A stretch of DNA of 5,383 nt from a virus (IMGVR_UViG_2684622670_000007:1-5383); one strand, 5' to 3'; positions 1 through 5,296 are shown, numbered from the stretch's first letter. Made by a program: numbers and translations. Notes: generated from the sequence alone by a model not told the origin.

Positions 1-436
1 GTACCGGTTTAACCTCGTCACGGGGCTTTCTGATGGCTGAAAGACGCTTTACAAGTTCATCCATCGCCTGACTCGATGCGTCGATGGTTCCGCTTTGGAT
101 TGGTTCACGCATTTCATCCATGATTTCCAGCACCAGACGGCGGTGATAGTTATCCGCGACCATTCCGGCATATCCCTTCAGGTTTGCGGCACTCGGGCAG
201 TTTTTGCTGGTCATCAGGATTGACGTGAAATGCTCCTCTCCGCACGCCTCGGCAACCATCAGCGCGTCGATTAGGTTTCTGTTTCGCGCCTGCTTCCGGA
301 TAACCTCGAAGGCTTTCCGGTAGAGCGGAATTGAAAACGCTTCCGGCTCAAGCGTTGCCAGAACGTCACTGGCAGTTGGTGTTAATCCACCAATCAGCAG
401 GCCACCGATAACGCTCGCTTCGATATCCTGTTTCAT
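1..436 (-). CDS. Replicative DNA helicase, DnaB family (phage P22 gene 12-type), N-terminal ~145 codons only; gene continues past the left edge
   Basis: Manual minus-strand translation from ATG (revcomp 434-436) gives [17 protein letters not shown]...[18 protein letters not shown]..., matching the conserved DnaB N-terminal domain (E. coli DnaB ...EAEQSVLGGLML...NTPSAANISAYADIV...). The start overlaps the stop of the upstream O-like gene (ATGA), suggesting translational coupling. Not in the ORF track because it is truncated by the window edge. Confidence 0.7.
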
Positions 437-1380
437 GCAATCCCCCTGTCTGCAAACTTTCCTTCCCGTACTCCCGTTAACGAATCTTCCCTCAGCAGGT
501 AATCAAAATCTGCCGTCCAGCCCGTGTCGTTGTCTCCGAAGTAAAACGGCTTGGCCTGATGCACAAACGCCCTGACATACGCTCTGAAACCGTCCACGTT
601 TGGCGTTTTCAGTTGCGGGATAATTTTCTTCAGGCGGCGTTTGCGTTTCTCGTTGACCGCAACAGCGTGTGGAAGTCTGTCACCGACTTCGGTGTTGTAG
701 GCGTTCAGGAAGGATTCGTAGTCGATTCGTTCTGCCTTGCGACGTTCAGGTTTAACCTGCCAATCGCCTCCCCCATTGGGGGGTAGGGGGGTATTATTTA
801 TATTCTTGTTAATACCTTCTTGTTCATGATGTGCGGTTGTTTGTGCGGCTTCATGTGCGCTTTCATGTGCGGCATGTACTCTGAAAGCCGCGCCATTACT
901 GGCTTCGTCATGTGCGGCATCATGTGCGGTTGTTTGTGCGGCTTCATGTGCGGGTGAATCGTCCGTTTTTTGAGCATATTCATGGTAATTTGTGATGGTA
1001 ATCACACGACCTTTTTGCTTCTCTCCATCAATGGTGATCATCTCCTCTTTCACAAAAACCTGAAGCATCCGCTCAACCTGATCACGGCTTGCCGGCTTGC
1101 CATGCCTGTCGCATAACTGAAGACCTAAATCAGCTGCTGTCACAACCAGTTGACCGGGTTGCAGATGCCATTCATGACCTTTGAAATTCGCTTTGTATGG
1201 CTTTCTGGCGGCATTCAGGAGAAGGTTTTCCCACAGGGTGCGAAGATAAACATCTTTCGCCCATGACTGTTTCAGAATGCTCCGGTACAACGGAATGTAA
1301 CCAGTTTTCTGGTTCTCCATCCTGTTGCTCCTGCGCTCGTGTGCGGCGCTGAAATCGTAGATTTTTGCTGTATTGCTCAT
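433..1380 (-). CDS. Replication initiation protein, lambda O / P22 gp18-like (315 aa)
   Basis: N-terminus MSNTAKI... resembles lambda O (MTNTAKI...). Sits downstream of cII and upstream of the helicase, as in lambdoid replication modules. The central low-complexity linker ([17 protein letters not shown]...) is encoded by the iteron arrays. A Shine-Dalgarno-like AGGCAGGT precedes the ATG. Confidence 0.85.
790..953. repeat. Putative phage replication origin inside the O-like gene: two arrays of four 12-bp-spaced iterons (core TGTGCGG) plus a flanking AT-rich segment
   Basis: TGTGCGG cores (one TGTGCGC variant) start at 830, 842, 854, 866 and at 911, 923, 935, 947, giving an exact 12-bp period within each array. 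A 35-bp unit at 825-859 is repeated at 918-952 with 34/35 identity. The AT-rich stretch 790-824 lies immediately downstream in the O reading direction, the same iteron-then-AT-rich order as lambda ori. Confidence 0.6.
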
Positions 1381-1382
1381 AA

Positions 1383-1655
1383 CTACCTGCCTTGACGAAA
1401 GACCTTAAGAACATCGTTAAACTGACTTACGGATATGTCTTCTTTGAGCAGCTTTTCCAGAAATGCGTTTGGAATGAACGTATATCCCTCCTCTTTTGGT
1501 AGGGACGGGAGCAACGCCCTCGCCTCAGCCTTCAGAAGCTCAGTTCTGGCAACTTTCACAAAAGAGATTTGAGTTCTTTCATCAATGGAACGAAGGAAGC
1601 GCAAACGCTTAACTTCTTTGTGTGTATCAGGTGGATTAAAGCCTTTGTTTCGCAT
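1383..1655 (-). CDS. Hypothetical protein (90 aa) between cII and the O-like gene
   Basis: Internal ATG (revcomp 1653-1655) is preceded by GAGGTAA at good spacing. The 146-aa version in the ORF track would overlap the cII-like gene by about 145 bp in another frame, so the shorter start is preferred. The stop lies 2 nt before the O-like ATG. No homologue recognised by eye. Confidence 0.5.
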   Translation of the reverse strand: MRNKGFNPPDTHKEVKRLRFLRSIDERTQISFVKVARTELLKAEARALLPSLPKEEGYTFIPNAFLEKLLKEDISVSQFNDVLKVFRQGR

Positions 1656-1666
1656 ATAATTACCTC

Positions 1667-1735
1667 GTTGGATGTTATTAAAATTCCATTTGTATTTGAT
1701 CAGAACGCTCGGTCTTGCACACCGGGCTTTTTTTA
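1667..1735 (+). ncRNA. OOP-like antisense RNA (promoter pO-like plus intrinsic terminator), antisense to the 3' end of cII
   Basis: Perfect -10 TATAAT at 1655-1660 with a weak -35. Plus-strand hairpin 1707-1713/1721-1727 (7 bp, one G-U) followed by T7 (1728-1734) lies inside the cII 3' coding region. The predicted ~68-nt transcript would overlap cII by ~57 nt, as lambda OOP does. Confidence 0.45.
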
Positions 1736-1977
1736 TTGGTGAGTCCATCAAGCGCATACTTAAAAGCCCTGCTAATCGGACTGATGTCTGATGCCATTCC
1801 AAAAGCACACAAGACCGAAGCAATAAATCTCCAGTCCGTTCTGCTTATCTTCGATTCATGACAGCCAATCATCTTTGCCAGACCGCGCTGGGTAAGCGTT
1901 GACAGGTTGATGAGTAAATCTGTTTCTGCGCGATCAACGTCGCGCTGTGATAGTTTGCTGTAACTTGTTTGTTCCAT
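1678..1977 (-). CDS. cII: cII-like transcriptional activator (99 aa)
   Basis: The translation aligns with lambda CII from recall: HTH region ...ESKISRTDW... and C-terminus ...LTNKKSPVCKTERSDQIQMEF versus lambda ...LTNKKRPAATERSEQIQMEF. Position downstream of cro and nutR is as expected. Confidence 0.85.
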   Translation of the reverse strand: MEQTSYSKLSQRDVDRAETDLLINLSTLTQRGLAKMIGCHESKISRTDWRFIASVLCAFGMASDISPISRAFKYALDGLTNKKSPVCKTERSDQIQMEF

Positions 1978-2074: not shown

Positions 2075-2299
2075 TTATGCTGCCTGATTCGGTTTTGGAA
2101 ACAGGTGTGGCAAATCGGGGCGAATTTCGTAAGCCTTGATCTGCCCTCCAGTGGCGTTAACGATGGCGGTAACTTTCTCTGGAGAGACCAACCCGCCTTT
2201 CAGCCATTTGTGTACTGCTGGCTGCGTTACACCACACTTGTCGGCAAGGCGCTTTTGGCTACCGACAATTTTCAAGGCTCGTTGAATTACTAAATTCAT
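2075..2299 (-). CDS. cro: Cro-like repressor, HTH_XRE family (74 aa from the preferred start; ORF track extends to 2320)
   Basis: HTH segment GSQKRLADKCGVTQPAVHKW. First gene downstream of predicted PR. The ATG at 2297-2299 is preceded by AGAGGT at 7-nt spacing, whereas the ATG at 2318-2320 has no SD and lies about 6 nt from the predicted transcription start. Confidence 0.75.
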   Translation of the reverse strand: MNLVIQRALKIVGSQKRLADKCGVTQPAVHKWLKGGLVSPEKVTAIVNATGGQIKAYEIRPDLPHLFPKPNQAA

Positions 2300-2332
2300 G
2301 AGCATACCTCTTGTGGTCATTACTTATAACCA

Positions 2333-2361
2333 AAGATAACTCAAGTTATAAAAAATAGCAA
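2333..2361 (-). promoter_or_regulatory. PR-like promoter (minus strand): -35 TTGCTA (2356-2361), 17-bp spacer, -10 TATCTT (2333-2338)
   Basis: Sigma70-like hexamers overlapping OR2 and OR1. The same -10 hexamer and flanking AGTTATCTTT are found at the predicted PL. Confidence 0.55.
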
Positions 2362-2398
2362 TAACCTTTGTTATTTTACTTTGGATAACCGTAGTTAT
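2336..2398. promoter_or_regulatory. Tripartite right operator: OR1 2336-2349 (ATAACtcaaGTTAT), OR2 2361-2374 (ATAACctttGTTAT), OR3 2385-2398 (ATAACcgtaGTTAT)
   Basis: Three perfect 14-bp palindromes of form ATAAC-N4-GTTAT with 24-25 bp centre-to-centre spacing, between divergent cro and cI. Related sites occur in the OL region. Confidence 0.7.
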
Positions 2399-2410: not shown

Positions 2411-3118
2411 ATGAAAACATTCGCAGAAAGACTAAATGCAGCCATGAGCTCAGCAGGTGTATCGCAATCACAGCTTGCTGACATGGTTGGAATATCTCAG
2501 CCAGCCATACAGAAGATGTCATCCGGTAAAACAAACGGATCTCGCAAGATGGTTGAATTAGCCAATGCTTTAAAAGTACGCCCTGAATGGCTTAGCTCTG
2601 GTATTGGTGAAATGAGGGATGGTACACATGAAGAACCATCCAATGTCCGTGAATCATCTTTAAAAGCTGTGGTATGGGAAGATATTAAAAGAAACGATGA
2701 CGAGTTTGTCGCGTTGCCTCTTCTTAACGTTTCGCTTTCAGCTGGAAGCGGTAGCTGCGAGCTAGAGGAATCATCAGAGTTCTCTTTGGTTTTCAGAAAG
2801 TACTATCTGAAAAAGATGGGGGTATCTGAAAGATCAGCCAAGCTAGTTAGGGTTGTAGGGCAAAGCATGGAACCAACGCTTCACGACGGAGATGTTGTTG
2901 GTGTTAACACACAAGATACCACAATCAGAGATGGTAAAACCTACGCTATTTGCCAGTCTGATTTGTTACGAGTAAAAACATTAATCGCCACCCCTACATC
3001 GGTGATAATCAGATCAATAAATCGCGAAGAGTACCCAGATGAAGTAATGGATAGAGATGAATTTCATGAAACCGTAAGGATTATTGGCAGAGTATTCTGG
3101 TCGTCTCATAGTTGGTAA
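2411..3118 (+). CDS. cI: CI-like prophage repressor: N-terminal HTH_XRE domain plus C-terminal S24 (LexA-type) autopeptidase domain
   Basis: HTH QSQLADMVGISQPAIQKM; S24 motifs GQSMEP (Ser nucleophile) and RVKTL (Lys); candidate Ala-Gly cleavage site in LSAGSG. The ORF track begins at TTG 2381, but the ATG at 2411 (MKTFAERL...) fits the promoter geometry. Confidence 0.9.
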   Translation: MKTFAERLNAAMSSAGVSQSQLADMVGISQPAIQKMSSGKTNGSRKMVELANALKVRPEWLSSGIGEMRDGTHEEPSNVRESSLKAVVWEDIKRNDDEFVALPLLNVSLSAGSGSCELEESSEFSLVFRKYYLKKMGVSERSAKLVRVVGQSMEPTLHDGDVVGVNTQDTTIRDGKTYAICQSDLLRVKTLIATPTSVIIRSINREEYPDEVMDRDEFHETVRIIGRVFWSSHSW

Positions 3119-3158: not shown

Positions 3159-3455
3159 ATGGAATTTCTGATAGTTTTTGTTGTTGTTTTGGTCATCATT
3201 CTTTTTGTTTTGCTAAGCATTAGCAAAAAGCTATCTCAAACGATTGAACATAGCTCTAATCGCGCAAAAGAAGAAGACCATCTAATTGATATAAAAGAGA
3301 TTCTCTCTGATATAAAAATCACATTAGATGAAATAAAATACACAACAGATCTAATTGAACAGTATAAAATACCAACCCCAAACGAGAGAAAAGCAATAGA
3401 TCAATATCGTATTGACTTAGAAATCGACGAAATGCTAAGCAAAAGAAAAGACTAA
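3159..3455 (+). CDS. Small membrane protein (98 aa): one N-terminal transmembrane helix then a charged, probably coiled-coil domain; sits in the position of lambda rexAB and is probably co-transcribed with cI
   Basis: Strong SD GGAGG (3150-3154) before the ATG. Hydrophobic residues 3-21 (FLIVFVVVLVIILFVLLSI) are followed by a K/E/D-rich region. Markedly AT-rich compared with the flanking phage genes. Lies 41 bp downstream of cI and is followed by an intrinsic terminator. Confidence 0.6.
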   Translation: MEFLIVFVVVLVIILFVLLSISKKLSQTIEHSSNRAKEEDHLIDIKEILSDIKITLDEIKYTTDLIEQYKIPTPNERKAIDQYRIDLEIDEMLSKRKD

Positions 3456-3608: not shown

Positions 3609-3691
3609 AATACCTTTGTTATCCATCACCTATAACTTATTTACCATAAAATATAAACTAAGTTATTGACCACACCTATAACCTAAGTTAT
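3609..3691. promoter_or_regulatory. Left operator region: OL1 3678-3691 (ATAACctaaGTTAT, perfect), OL2 3653-3666 (one mismatch), weaker OL3-like site 3609-3622
   Basis: Same 14-bp ATAAC-N4-GTTAT family as the OR sites. OL1 and OL2 are 25 bp apart and overlap the predicted PL hexamers. Confidence 0.6.
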
Positions 3692-3933: not shown

Positions 3934-4140
3934 GTGAAAGCAAGAGAGATTCGCAAACTCGAACGCGCTCGTAAGCACAAAGAGGCGACAGCAAAACGTA
4001 AAAATATTGACCGTGTTTCAATGGTGGTTTCGCTAGCAGGAGCGAATAGGAAGAAGGTTGAATGTGGTTCGTGCTGCCTGCCAAACGTAGCTCTTTACGC
4101 GGCAGGCTACCGGAAATCAAAACAACTGACGGCGAGGTGA
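3934..4140 (+). CDS. N: N-like transcription antitermination protein (68 aa, GTG start)
   Basis: First gene downstream of PL and nutL. Arginine/lysine-rich N-terminus (MKAREIRKLERARKHKEATAKRK). The C-terminal part resembles N proteins of P22-type phages from recall (unverified). Strong SD GGAGG (3923-3927) 6 nt before the GTG. Confidence 0.7.
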   Translation: MKAREIRKLERARKHKEATAKRKNIDRVSMVVSLAGANRKKVECGSCCLPNVALYAAGYRKSKQLTAR

Positions 4141-4161: not shown

Positions 4162-4701
4162 CTAAATTAGCTCATCAGCTTTACCAGCAAAGCGCATATA
4201 ACACTCATAGAACCAGACGTCAGGTATAACAAATTTCTCTTTACCTGACGCGCTGTAAGTCACACCTGAGCGATGGAGAAGGCCTTTTCTCATAAGAGAT
4301 AAAGCGACCGGATCGCCGTGCTTAAGTACGATTTTGTTATTTGCCATAACAGCAAATGCTAAAACCTCTTTTTCCTGAATACTCAGAGAATTGAACAGGC
4401 GCTCAGTCTCCACAATTACTTTAGCCTCATCTCTCTTACTGAGATATTTTTTATATCTGTCTGAAGATGCCAGAAATATAAACTCCATCACCCTGTTCAG
4501 AACATAACTGATACACAAAAGCATTGCGTAATACATCCAGTGATCTGGAAGTATTTCGGGGTTCCTTATATCTACCCACTCTTTAATTGATGCTGGGGTG
4601 ATTATTATCAAGGCAATTAAAATAATAAGCATATGAATTAACTGTTGTAGCGTAAGACCACGCAGGAAGAAACGTAATAGTTCCTGCCACCAGTTACTCA
4701 T
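4162..4701 (-). CDS. Membrane protein (179 aa), putative superinfection exclusion protein B (SieB)-like
   Basis: Convergent with and abutting the N-like gene, the arrangement I recall for lambda sieB and N. N-terminal hydrophobic segment (LIHMLIILIALIIITP) and soluble C-terminal domain. GGAG-type SD before the ATG. Low GC. The assignment rests on position, size and topology only. Confidence 0.5.
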   Translation of the reverse strand: MSNWWQELLRFFLRGLTLQQLIHMLIILIALIIITPASIKEWVDIRNPEILPDHWMYYAMLLCISYVLNRVMEFIFLASSDRYKKYLSKRDEAKVIVETERLFNSLSIQEKEVLAFAVMANNKIVLKHGDPVALSLMRKGLLHRSGVTYSASGKEKFVIPDVWFYECYMRFAGKADELI

Positions 4702-4846: not shown

Positions 4847-5296
4847 ATGGAAGAACAAGCAAACAAGATTCTCGTAGAACTACTGCAAAAAGCCAGTAAT
4901 GGAATAGACGCGGCTGTTTCATTTAGCCAGGCACAGATTCCTGATGTTGTTCATCAGTTGCTGCTATGGAATATGGTTGACAGTCTGATTAAAACATTAA
5001 TAGCCATTCTAACAATCCCACTGGTTTTCTGGTTTATGAAGAAGCAGTGCCAAAGAGTTGAGACAGGTAAAATCGGTGATGAAGGATACTCATGGGAAAG
5101 GGGAAATCCCAAATACAGGCCGACAATGGTTTGGGATAGCAAAGGAGATATTAACCTTCTTATCATGCCATTGGTTGGAGTTTTGACTCTGTGGGGGATT
5201 TTTATTATTGGTGTAGTAACCAATATGACTTGGTTAAAAATTTGGCTGGCCCCAAAACTTTACCTTATCGAATATGCAGCATCATTGGTTAAGTAA
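4847..5296 (+). CDS. Hypothetical membrane protein (149 aa, two predicted transmembrane helices)
   Basis: SD AAGG (4837-4840) 6 nt before the ATG. Hydrophobic segments LIKTLIAILTIPLVFWFM and LLIMPLVGVLTLWGIFIIGVV. Low-GC, divergent from the SieB-like gene. No homologue recognised. Confidence 0.55.
   Translation: MEEQANKILVELLQKASNGIDAAVSFSQAQIPDVVHQLLLWNMVDSLIKTLIAILTIPLVFWFMKKQCQRVETGKIGDEGYSWERGNPKYRPTMVWDSKGDINLLIMPLVGVLTLWGIFIIGVVTNMTWLKIWLAPKLYLIEYAASLVK

Follow-up and report, generated by a model that had tools for sequence, protein, structure and literature searches.

Introduction

The experimentally defined origin of phage lambda lies inside the gene of its own initiator, O, a Phage_rep_O protein, with the repeats placed mid-gene in the region that encodes the inter-domain linker. 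Four iterons, annotated at 18 bp, carry the dyad TCCCTC...GAGGGA, start 20-24 bp apart and bind O as a dimer. In the order of transcription, an AT-rich stretch and then an inverted repeat come after the iterons. Moreover, the N-terminal domain of O goes with the repeats and the C-terminal domain goes with the partner that delivers the helicase, in this case P. Iteron plasmids (pPS10 RepA, F RepE and R6K pi) also initiate from direct repeats, which are bound by winged-helix Rep monomers, the initiating form of the protein, and adjoin an AT-rich unwinding element. Their iterons are ~17-22 bp long, roughly in helical phase and located outside the rep gene, and each Rep monomer has two winged-helix domains.

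For the Stx phages 933W and P27, a published study describes six lambda-like iterons in the O gene, which lengthen the protein linker, and the binding of O dimers by EMSA and footprinting (PMC7466680). Gene 18 of P22 contains four ~20-bp repeats, and gene 18 of Salmonella phage L contains six 11-bp repeats that were described as 'likely the origin' (PMC8022706). The phage L record (GenBank MW013503) carries a rep_origin feature at 31650-31726, an assignment made by inference. From the paper and the record it follows that a short-repeat kind of origin has already been recognised, by inference, in a distant homologue of the initiator described below. Papers on the non-lambda replication modules of Stx phages neither define their origins nor mention iterons, a search of the literature returned no experiment on this initiator family and no origin or iteron report specific to this module, and the records of CUS-3, Kapi1 and the Stx2a phages that carry it have no rep_origin annotation.

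Here we analyse a viral DNA stretch of 5,383 nucleotides (IMGVR_UViG_2684622670_000007:1-5383, hereafter the window), which comprises the part of a lambdoid prophage that is devoted to immunity and replication (Table 1). Judging from the sequence and its relatives, positions 766-957, inside an O-like initiator gene, are probably the replication origin of this prophage. The module is very probably a lambda-type origin of known kind with its own short head-to-tail repeats.

The initiator gene and its repeats

The initiator gene has a single Pfam match, Phage_rep_O (PF04492), over aa 20-132 (E = 3.7e-15; 56.7 bits against a cutoff of 28.7), and also matches PHROG 345, 'replication initiation O-like' (E = 2.5e-97). 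Genes that carry the annotation replication protein O in ~50 Stx2a-converting phages, TL-2011a, Kapi1 and HF4s match it at 98% identity, and the CUS-3 protein shares 96.7% identity across the N-domain. A conserved internal start is found at 1320. The truncated gene downstream of the initiator is annotated as a DNA helicase in the records of its relatives.

An AlphaFold2 model of aa 1-141 (mean pLDDT 75.8) contains a helix at 44-56, strands at 62-80, helices at 82-88 and 99-111 and a hairpin at 115-129. When this model was searched against the PDB with Foldseek, the best matches were all winged-helix DNA binders; these matches are weak (E of at least 0.026) and were therefore taken as a hint of the fold class only. 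A sequence search of the PDB with the initiator returned no match at E <= 1. The N-domain is thus presumed, from a model of medium confidence and weak Foldseek E-values, to be a winged-helix-like DNA-binding domain.

Table 1. Predicted features of the window, with strand and the evidence or remarks for each. Sense refers to the strand of the initiator gene.
Feature	Position	Strand	Evidence or remark
cI-like repressor	2411-3118	+	
cro-like gene	2075-2320	-	
cII	1678-1977	-	
Small ORF	1383-1658	-	PHROG match with unknown function only
O-like replication initiator gene, 315 aa	433-1380	-	Pfam Phage_rep_O and PHROG 345
N-terminal winged-helix-like DNA-binding domain, aa 21-141, presumed iteron reader	958-1320	-	AlphaFold2 and Foldseek
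Helix 82-88, beginning at residue 82	1117-1137		
Predicted recognition helix, aa 99-111	1048-1086	-	AlphaFold2 model and co-variation of Asp100 with core base 5
Iteron array I, four 12-bp head-to-tail units, sense core CCGCACA(T/A); sense units from 953 down to 906: CCGCACATGAAG, CCGCACAAACAA, CCGCACATGATG, CCGCACATGACG	906-953	-	In register in ~40 related loci
Central spacer, 33 bp, sense AAGCCAGTAATGGCGCGGCTTTCAGAGTACATG	873-905	-	Conserved between specificity groups
Iteron array II, four 12-bp units, the second (849-860) with variant core GCGCACA; sense units from 872 down to 825: CCGCACATGAAA, GCGCACATGAAG, CCGCACAAACAA, CCGCACATCATG	825-872	-	
AT-rich block, 33 bp, 18% GC, A-rich on the sense strand, presumed DNA-unwinding element	792-824		Composition
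G/C-rich element: CCCCCCTA/CCCCCCAA direct repeat and CCCCC-AAT-GGGGG inverted repeat	766-791		Sequence
C-terminal domain, aa 206-315, presumed helicase-recruiting module	436-765	-	95-97% identity to HK97/HK022-type O C-terminus
DnaB-like replicative helicase gene, 5' part, downstream of the initiator and running off the window	1-436	-	Pfam DnaB N-terminal domain, E = 4e-14

A first-pass annotation of the window had reported eight TGTGCGG cores in two arrays of four within this gene. The layout stands, as do seven of the cores; the core at 854 reads TGTGCGC, a one-base variant that recurs at the same position in Klebsiella phage 2b. Exact copies of TGTGCGG are found on the + strand at 830, 842, 866, 911, 923, 935 and 947, with an outlier at 1340. 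The eight copies in the window compare with 0.61 expected, and none of 200 shuffles reached this number. The exact 12-bp periodicity that had been described was recovered within each array, and Tandem Repeats Finder independently returned a period of 12 at 842-873 and 908-953. The starts of the two arrays are 81 bp apart. The same annotation had pointed to a duplicated 35-bp unit, and 825-859 indeed matches 918-952 at 34 of 35 positions, in frame and at an offset of 93 bp. The conserved core reads CCGCACAT in the sense direction and ATGTGCGG on the + strand. All units have one orientation and the repeat finder gave no inverted repeat within or between them, so that internal dyad symmetry is lacking; moreover, a spacing of 12 bp does not keep them in phase with the helical repeat of DNA.

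The arrays (825-953) encode aa 143-185, a linker with a 4-residue period of the pattern x-Ala-His/Gln-x, and fall between the modelled N-domain, which ends at ~aa 136, and the common C-module, which begins at ~aa 190-206. The view that the same DNA encodes the repetitive linker of the initiator is therefore correct, and so is the placing of an AT-rich block after the arrays in the direction of O. Within this block, 793-822 (30 bp, 20% GC) has the lowest GC content of the whole initiator gene. The G/C-rich element belongs to the HK97-type C-terminal module and is also present, with other iterons, in HK97 and in one of the related loci (L006); its position corresponds to an inverted repeat that can be read in the lambda sequence to the right of the AT-rich region.

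In the mechanism that we propose, the eight 12-bp units would be binding sites (iterons) for the N-domain of the protein encoded by the same DNA. Each 8-bp core would be read by one N-domain, with the recognition helix in the major groove and Asp100 reading the A of CCGCACA. The bound protomers would assemble into a nucleoprotein complex comparable to the O-some of lambda, which would destabilise the adjacent AT-rich block, and the C-terminal domain would then recruit the phage DnaB-like helicase encoded immediately downstream. We infer binding and its stoichiometry (head-to-tail monomers rather than dimers), melting of the AT-rich block and the firing of an origin at this site.

Comparison with phage and plasmid origins

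As in lambda, a Phage_rep_O initiator gene carries repeats in its middle, in the region between the two domains, and the order along transcription is repeats, AT-rich stretch, inverted repeat. The N-domain again goes with the repeats and the C-domain with the helicase-delivery partner. The lambda ori architecture proposed by the first-pass annotation thus applies to the layout, in the order of repeats, AT-rich block and G/C repeat. However, it does not extend to the binding site itself, which consists of head-to-tail units without the lambda dyad symmetry. Unlike lambda, the window has eight such units of 12 bp, in two arrays around a conserved 33-bp spacer, and the partner is a DnaB-like helicase instead of P. 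Given that the units have no internal dyad and that their spacing is out of helical phase, the dimer-per-iteron mode of lambda is not simply transferable. Rather, 12-bp head-to-tail units without dyad symmetry that are split by a spacer make one protomer per unit, as in direct-repeat winged-helix systems, more plausible than a lambda-like dimer per iteron, a conclusion that we draw from the arrangement of the repeats.

The closest functional analogy for such head-to-tail binding is provided by the iteron plasmids. The window differs from the Rep_3/RepA-RepE-pi plasmids in that its repeats are 12 bp long and intragenic, and Pfam and PDB searches gave no sequence relationship. The phages 933W and P27 are close relatives of lambda with lambda-type iterons, and the module in the window is unrelated to them in iteron sequence. 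Moreover, the 933W iterons have internal dyad symmetry, whereas the units in the window do not.

Phage L was compared over 31254-32153 (locus L053) with window 766-957. As in the window, its gene 18 contains direct repeats, a spacer, further direct repeats and an Asn/Ile-coding AT-rich run, and a DnaB-like helicase gene follows. The two spacers are homologous (CCAGTAATGACGCGGCT in phage L and CCAGTAATGGCGCGGCT in the window), and the motif CCAGTAATG(G/A)CGCGGCT of the window spacer is also found between the two arrays of gene 18. In contrast, the phage L core is TGTCCAACGGA, the period is 11 bp, the units are arranged 3+3 and not 4+4, and the N-domain is only remotely similar.

HK97 O shares with the window the C-module from the AT-rich block onward (95-97% DNA identity) and a DnaB-like helicase partner, but has a lambda-like N-domain and, at the equivalent place, four ~20-bp dyad repeats (ATTAGCC-N5-GGCTAAT) that are 20-24 bp apart. 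DNA homology to HK97, to HK022-type phages and to many Salmonella and Stx phages covers the C-terminal part only and ends at ~809. This mosaic joint lies inside the AT-rich block, and two homology breakpoints both map there. At the same block, the N-domain and repeats of the window type are joined to either of two C-termini. An HK97-type C-terminus with a DnaB-like helicase gene is found in the window and in loci L034 and L049; a lambda-type C-terminus with a P-like gene downstream is found in Klebsiella and Yersinia phages and in 34 genome loci. Among the loci in which one of the two C-types was recognised there were no discordant pairs of C-terminus and helicase or loader gene (neither type was recognised in L043, L050 and L051, and nothing matched in L014 and L048). 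As read from these sequences, the initiator has the two-module structure that is classical for lambdoid phages, and the modules meet at the presumed unwinding element.

The sequence of the repeats is co-inherited with the N-domain, as all close N-domain relatives have the same core. HK97, with the same C-module, has another N-domain and four dyad-symmetric iterons, and relatives of the N-domain carry either the same or systematically altered cores. The suggestion that the specificity of initiator and origin is distinct is borne out by these comparisons. The small ORF upstream of the initiator was considered as a candidate for the repeat binder and rejected: Klebsiella and Yersinia phages have other genes at this place. 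Since the small ORF is not co-inherited with the repeats, the co-varying partner is the O N-domain itself.

The comparisons also bear on whether the repeats are protein-binding sites at which replication does not begin. They might serve titration or autoregulation, handcuffing or transcription pausing, or might bind another phage or host protein, with replication starting elsewhere. We regard this as unlikely, because the AT-rich block lies directly beside the arrays, on the side where it would be placed by analogy with lambda, because the position in the gene and the modular joint match those of the experimentally defined lambda origin and of the HK97 repeats, and because the co-inherited partner is the O N-domain and not the small ORF. 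A scan of 600-1450 for sigma-70 promoters found none in the spacer or the arrays, which likewise argues against this reading, although two arrays that flank a conserved spacer are reminiscent of regulatory or centromere-like sites such as parC of plasmid R1. No direct mapping of an origin was found for this family, a further point in favour of such a role. The spacer is conserved between groups with completely different cores, at several synonymous positions too, as might be expected of a site for a common factor. It could serve as such a site, meet a structural need of the complex or encode a conserved peptide, and its strong conservation is left unexplained by the origin model.

Constraint on the repeats at the level of DNA

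Each unit spans four codons, for x-Ala-His/Gln-x, and a peptide repeat therefore had to be excluded. The repeats could then be a feature of the protein only, a flexible His/Ala-rich linker with a 4-residue period that arose by in-frame slippage or duplication, with the origin elsewhere. The peptide (x-A-H-x)n is visibly repetitive, the 93-bp duplication is in frame and near-perfect, and the number of units varies among relatives (3+3 or 4+4), as is the case for slippage-prone repeats. The relatives of the N-domain used for the comparison were Klebsiella phage 2b, Yersinia phage 29.18, 43 Enterobacterales genome loci and three distant phages. Nearly all close relatives share the register of the window, with their units arranged 3+3 or 4+4 on the two sides of the same spacer and followed by the same AT-rich run, and the register, the 8-bp core and the 12-bp period are kept across Enterobacterales genera at 70-85% protein identity.

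Codon usage in the units argues against a peptide-level origin of this pattern. The residue encoded at the start of a unit varies, yet C occupies the wobble position before the core in 244 of 246 units from 38 related loci, whether the codon is for Pro, Ala, Ser, Thr or Gly. For the same amino acids in the N-domains of the same genes, C-ending codons account for 338 of 1187 (28%). The Ala codon of the units is only ever GCA or GCG, never GCC or GCT, and is uniform within a locus; in the N-domain the Ala codons are GCC (89), GCA (73), GCT (56) and GCG (51), such that GCC and GCT make up more than half. Where Glu replaces Ala in the units the codon is GAG, alternating with GCG, which leaves the DNA core intact. 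At positions 2-9 the 12-mer hardly varies.

Other genomes point in the same direction. All five CCGCACAT 8-mers in the 39.4-kb genome of Kapi1 lie inside the repeat region of the initiator. In the distant homologue, gene 18 of phage L, the 11-bp units are read in three frames and the peptide is non-repetitive, so that no peptide repeat is possible there. A purely peptide-level explanation fails to account for the codon, core, phage L and Kapi1 observations, and the co-variation of the core with residues of the DNA-binding helices (see below) speaks against it as well; we consider it very unlikely. Taken together, these data show that the repeats are under selection as DNA, at synonymous sites, and not only as peptide.

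Co-variation of the repeat core with residues of a predicted helix-turn-helix

The synonymous state of the units is concerted within each locus. Fifteen loci have CCGCACA throughout (A-type) and 23 have CCG(C/A)GCA throughout (G-type), and the consensus is CCGCACAT for the A-type loci (96 units) and CCG(C/A)GCAT for the G-type loci (168 units). Residue 100 of the initiator is Asp in all 15 A-type loci and His in all 23 G-type loci. Residue 82 is Ala in A-type loci and Ser or Thr in G-type loci, and this split also coincides with the core type without exception. In the AlphaFold2 model the two residues are at the starts of the second and third predicted helices. Helix-turn-helix proteins usually contact DNA at these positions.

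The helix-wing segment, with columns 82 and 100 masked, was used to build a neighbour-joining tree, which carries no support values. In this tree the G-type loci fall into two clades, each of which adjoins A-type loci. This arrangement implies that the paired change happened, or was assembled, at least twice. In pairwise comparison, the A-type locus L003 is 87% identical to the G-type locus L020 and 72% identical to the window. The helix-turn-helix segment and the repeats are only ~100-300 bp apart and therefore part of the co-variation may be due to linkage. Moreover, concerted evolution by unequal exchange could make a synonymous base uniform across the units of a locus even if no protein bound them.

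More distant relatives of the N-domain, at ~45% identity, have other cores and other starts of the recognition helix, and keep 3+3 units, the 12-bp period, the spacer and the AT-rich block. Two such groups have KSPQ with YCCGAT-like units and KSAK with GTCGAA-like units. A more specific proposal, which we put forward tentatively and hold to be possible but doubtful, is that one residue, at the second position of the recognition helix, would set one base, with Asp100 reading A and His100 reading G at core position 5. Recognition of the origin would also be unlike that in lambda, with single winged-helix protomers that form a head-to-tail polymer on 12-bp units spaced out of helical phase, in two arrays that flank a conserved spacer, perhaps the site of a common factor, and the specificity would have been switched at least twice in nature. 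If this is true, the Asp100/His100 rule could be used to re-programme the specificity of the origin.

That the repeats are instead a recombination scar or hot spot, accumulated at a module-exchange junction, homogenised by gene conversion and read by no protein, is most improbable, for although the HK97-type breakpoint adjoins the arrays and whole units have been shuffled between closely related phages (array II of Kapi1 versus that of the window), the breakpoint lies in the AT-rich block outside the repeats, the register, core and period persist across Enterobacterales genera, and the state of the core tracks residues of the DNA-binding domain in separate clades.

Other sequence matches and occurrence of the module

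Several further matches in the window were considered. The outlying TGTGCGG at 1340-1346 was rejected as a ninth, autoregulatory site, as it is absent from the other A-type loci examined (L002, L003, L009-L021, L042 and L043); the 'SAAH' leader at this site also occurs in loci with different iterons, which counts against such a role. DnaA boxes were considered too: a G-type unit, TTATGCGCGG, is only partially like TTATNCACA, and the units in the window are unlike it. Terminator-like matches at 843-860 and 950-966, on the antisense strand of the gene, are no more than shuffles give, and an Rfam scan of the whole window returned no RNA family.

The module offers a compact natural example of an initiator that co-evolves with an origin embedded in its own gene, and extends the lambda paradigm without overturning it. 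What is gained is a likely origin, an 8-bp recognition core and a candidate specificity residue. Replication proteins define the subtypes of Stx2a phages, and toxin production correlates with subtype (PMC4645166). The interest of the module lies mainly in its presence in Stx2a phages, given this correlation of replication type with toxin yield.

At a coverage of at least 80%, window 700-1100 is present in 272 of 5426 complete E. coli genomes. The module is carried by the P22-like phages CUS-3, Kapi1, HF4s and JEP4 and by ~50 Stx2a-converting phages of E. coli O157:H7 and O103:H25. Lastly, the N-domain and repeats, combined with a lambda-type C-terminus, occur in prophages of many Enterobacterales genera.

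Mosaicism and apparent repeat turnover in the initiator gene

Comparison with other phages placed a sharp mosaic breakpoint at about position 809 of the window, within the AT-rich block (792-824). To the left of it, HK97, mEp213, Stx1/Stx2 phages and Salmonella P22-like phages share the C-terminal part of the O-like initiator and the helicase gene with the window at 95-97% identity; to the right, matches are confined to a much smaller phage set. The order of iteron units also differs between the window and a close relative. In Kapi1, a 98%-identical phage, the array at 9899-9946 comprises, in order, CCGCACAAACAA, CCGCACATGATG, TCGCACAAACAA and CCGCACATCATG, and this order differs from that of array II in the window (825-872). 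Therefore, entire 12-bp units seem to have been shuffled or converted, with register and cores retained.

The spacer between the two arrays is kept, by sequence comparison, in three related initiator loci (L006, L007 and L051) despite their completely different iteron cores. Its counterpart in gene 18 of Salmonella phage L is ACCAGTAATGACGCGGCT, and the conservation extends to synonymous positions. No promoter-like site was found in the spacer. The annotated putative origin of phage L (31650-31726) consists of six 11-bp repeats, arranged 3+3 around a spacer. As 11 is not divisible by 3, the repeats encode the non-repetitive peptide CPTDVQRMSNA; here a putative origin is clearly overprinted on coding sequence. 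In the Xenorhabdus ehlersii locus (1501-1970) the initiator gene spans 156 codons, counted from MENQK, the residues that begin at the internal ATG, and terminates beyond the first array and the spacer; this gene is probably a decayed prophage copy.

A candidate internal start and a ninth core match

All of the 40+ related loci carry AGGAGCAAC(A/C)GG directly 5′ of an in-frame ATG (MENQK..., window 1320). This stretch contains the rare Arg codon AGG and resembles a Shine-Dalgarno site. The 20-residue leader preceding the ATG is highly variable among related loci, and the annotation of Klebsiella phage 2b places the start of the initiator at the matching ATG. Taken together, this retained site, the variable leader and the Klebsiella annotation suggest that the ATG at 1320 is an internal or alternative start for initiator translation.

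The same leader contains a ninth exact TGTGCGG (1340-1346), spanning Ala-Ala-His codons. We found no counterpart of it in the other relatives examined with CCGCACA-type iterons, and the surrounding leader peptide recurs in loci carrying other iterons. On these comparisons the match is probably incidental.

Flanking operator-like palindromes and genes

Five operator-like palindromes of the form ATAAC-N4-GTTAT were found in two clusters, against 0.2 expected by chance. The ORF between cII and O is also found in Kapi1 and Stx2a phages, and other genes take its place in the Klebsiella and Yersinia phages that share the iteron module of the window. The small ORF downstream of cI is followed by an apparent terminator hairpin, as judged by eye.

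Features of the window outside the iteron arrays
Feature	Position	Strand	Remarks
Inter-array spacer, 33 bp	873-905		sense strand contains GCCAGTAATGGCGCGGCTTTC
Shine-Dalgarno-like sequence before in-frame ATG	1318-1332	-	conserved in 40+ related loci
91-aa ORF between cII and O	1383-1658	-	PHROG 2519 (unknown function), E 2e-57
Three palindromes	2336-2398		between cro and cI; OR-like
Small ORF downstream of cI	3159-3455	+	hydrophobic N-terminus; PHROG 18389 (unknown function)
Two palindromes	3653-3691		~240-280 bp upstream of N-like gene; OL-like
N-like antiterminator ORF	3934-4140	+	
Superinfection-exclusion gene, SieB-related	4162-4701	-	PHROG 1301, E 2e-93
149-aa ORF	4847-5296	+	hydrophobic stretches
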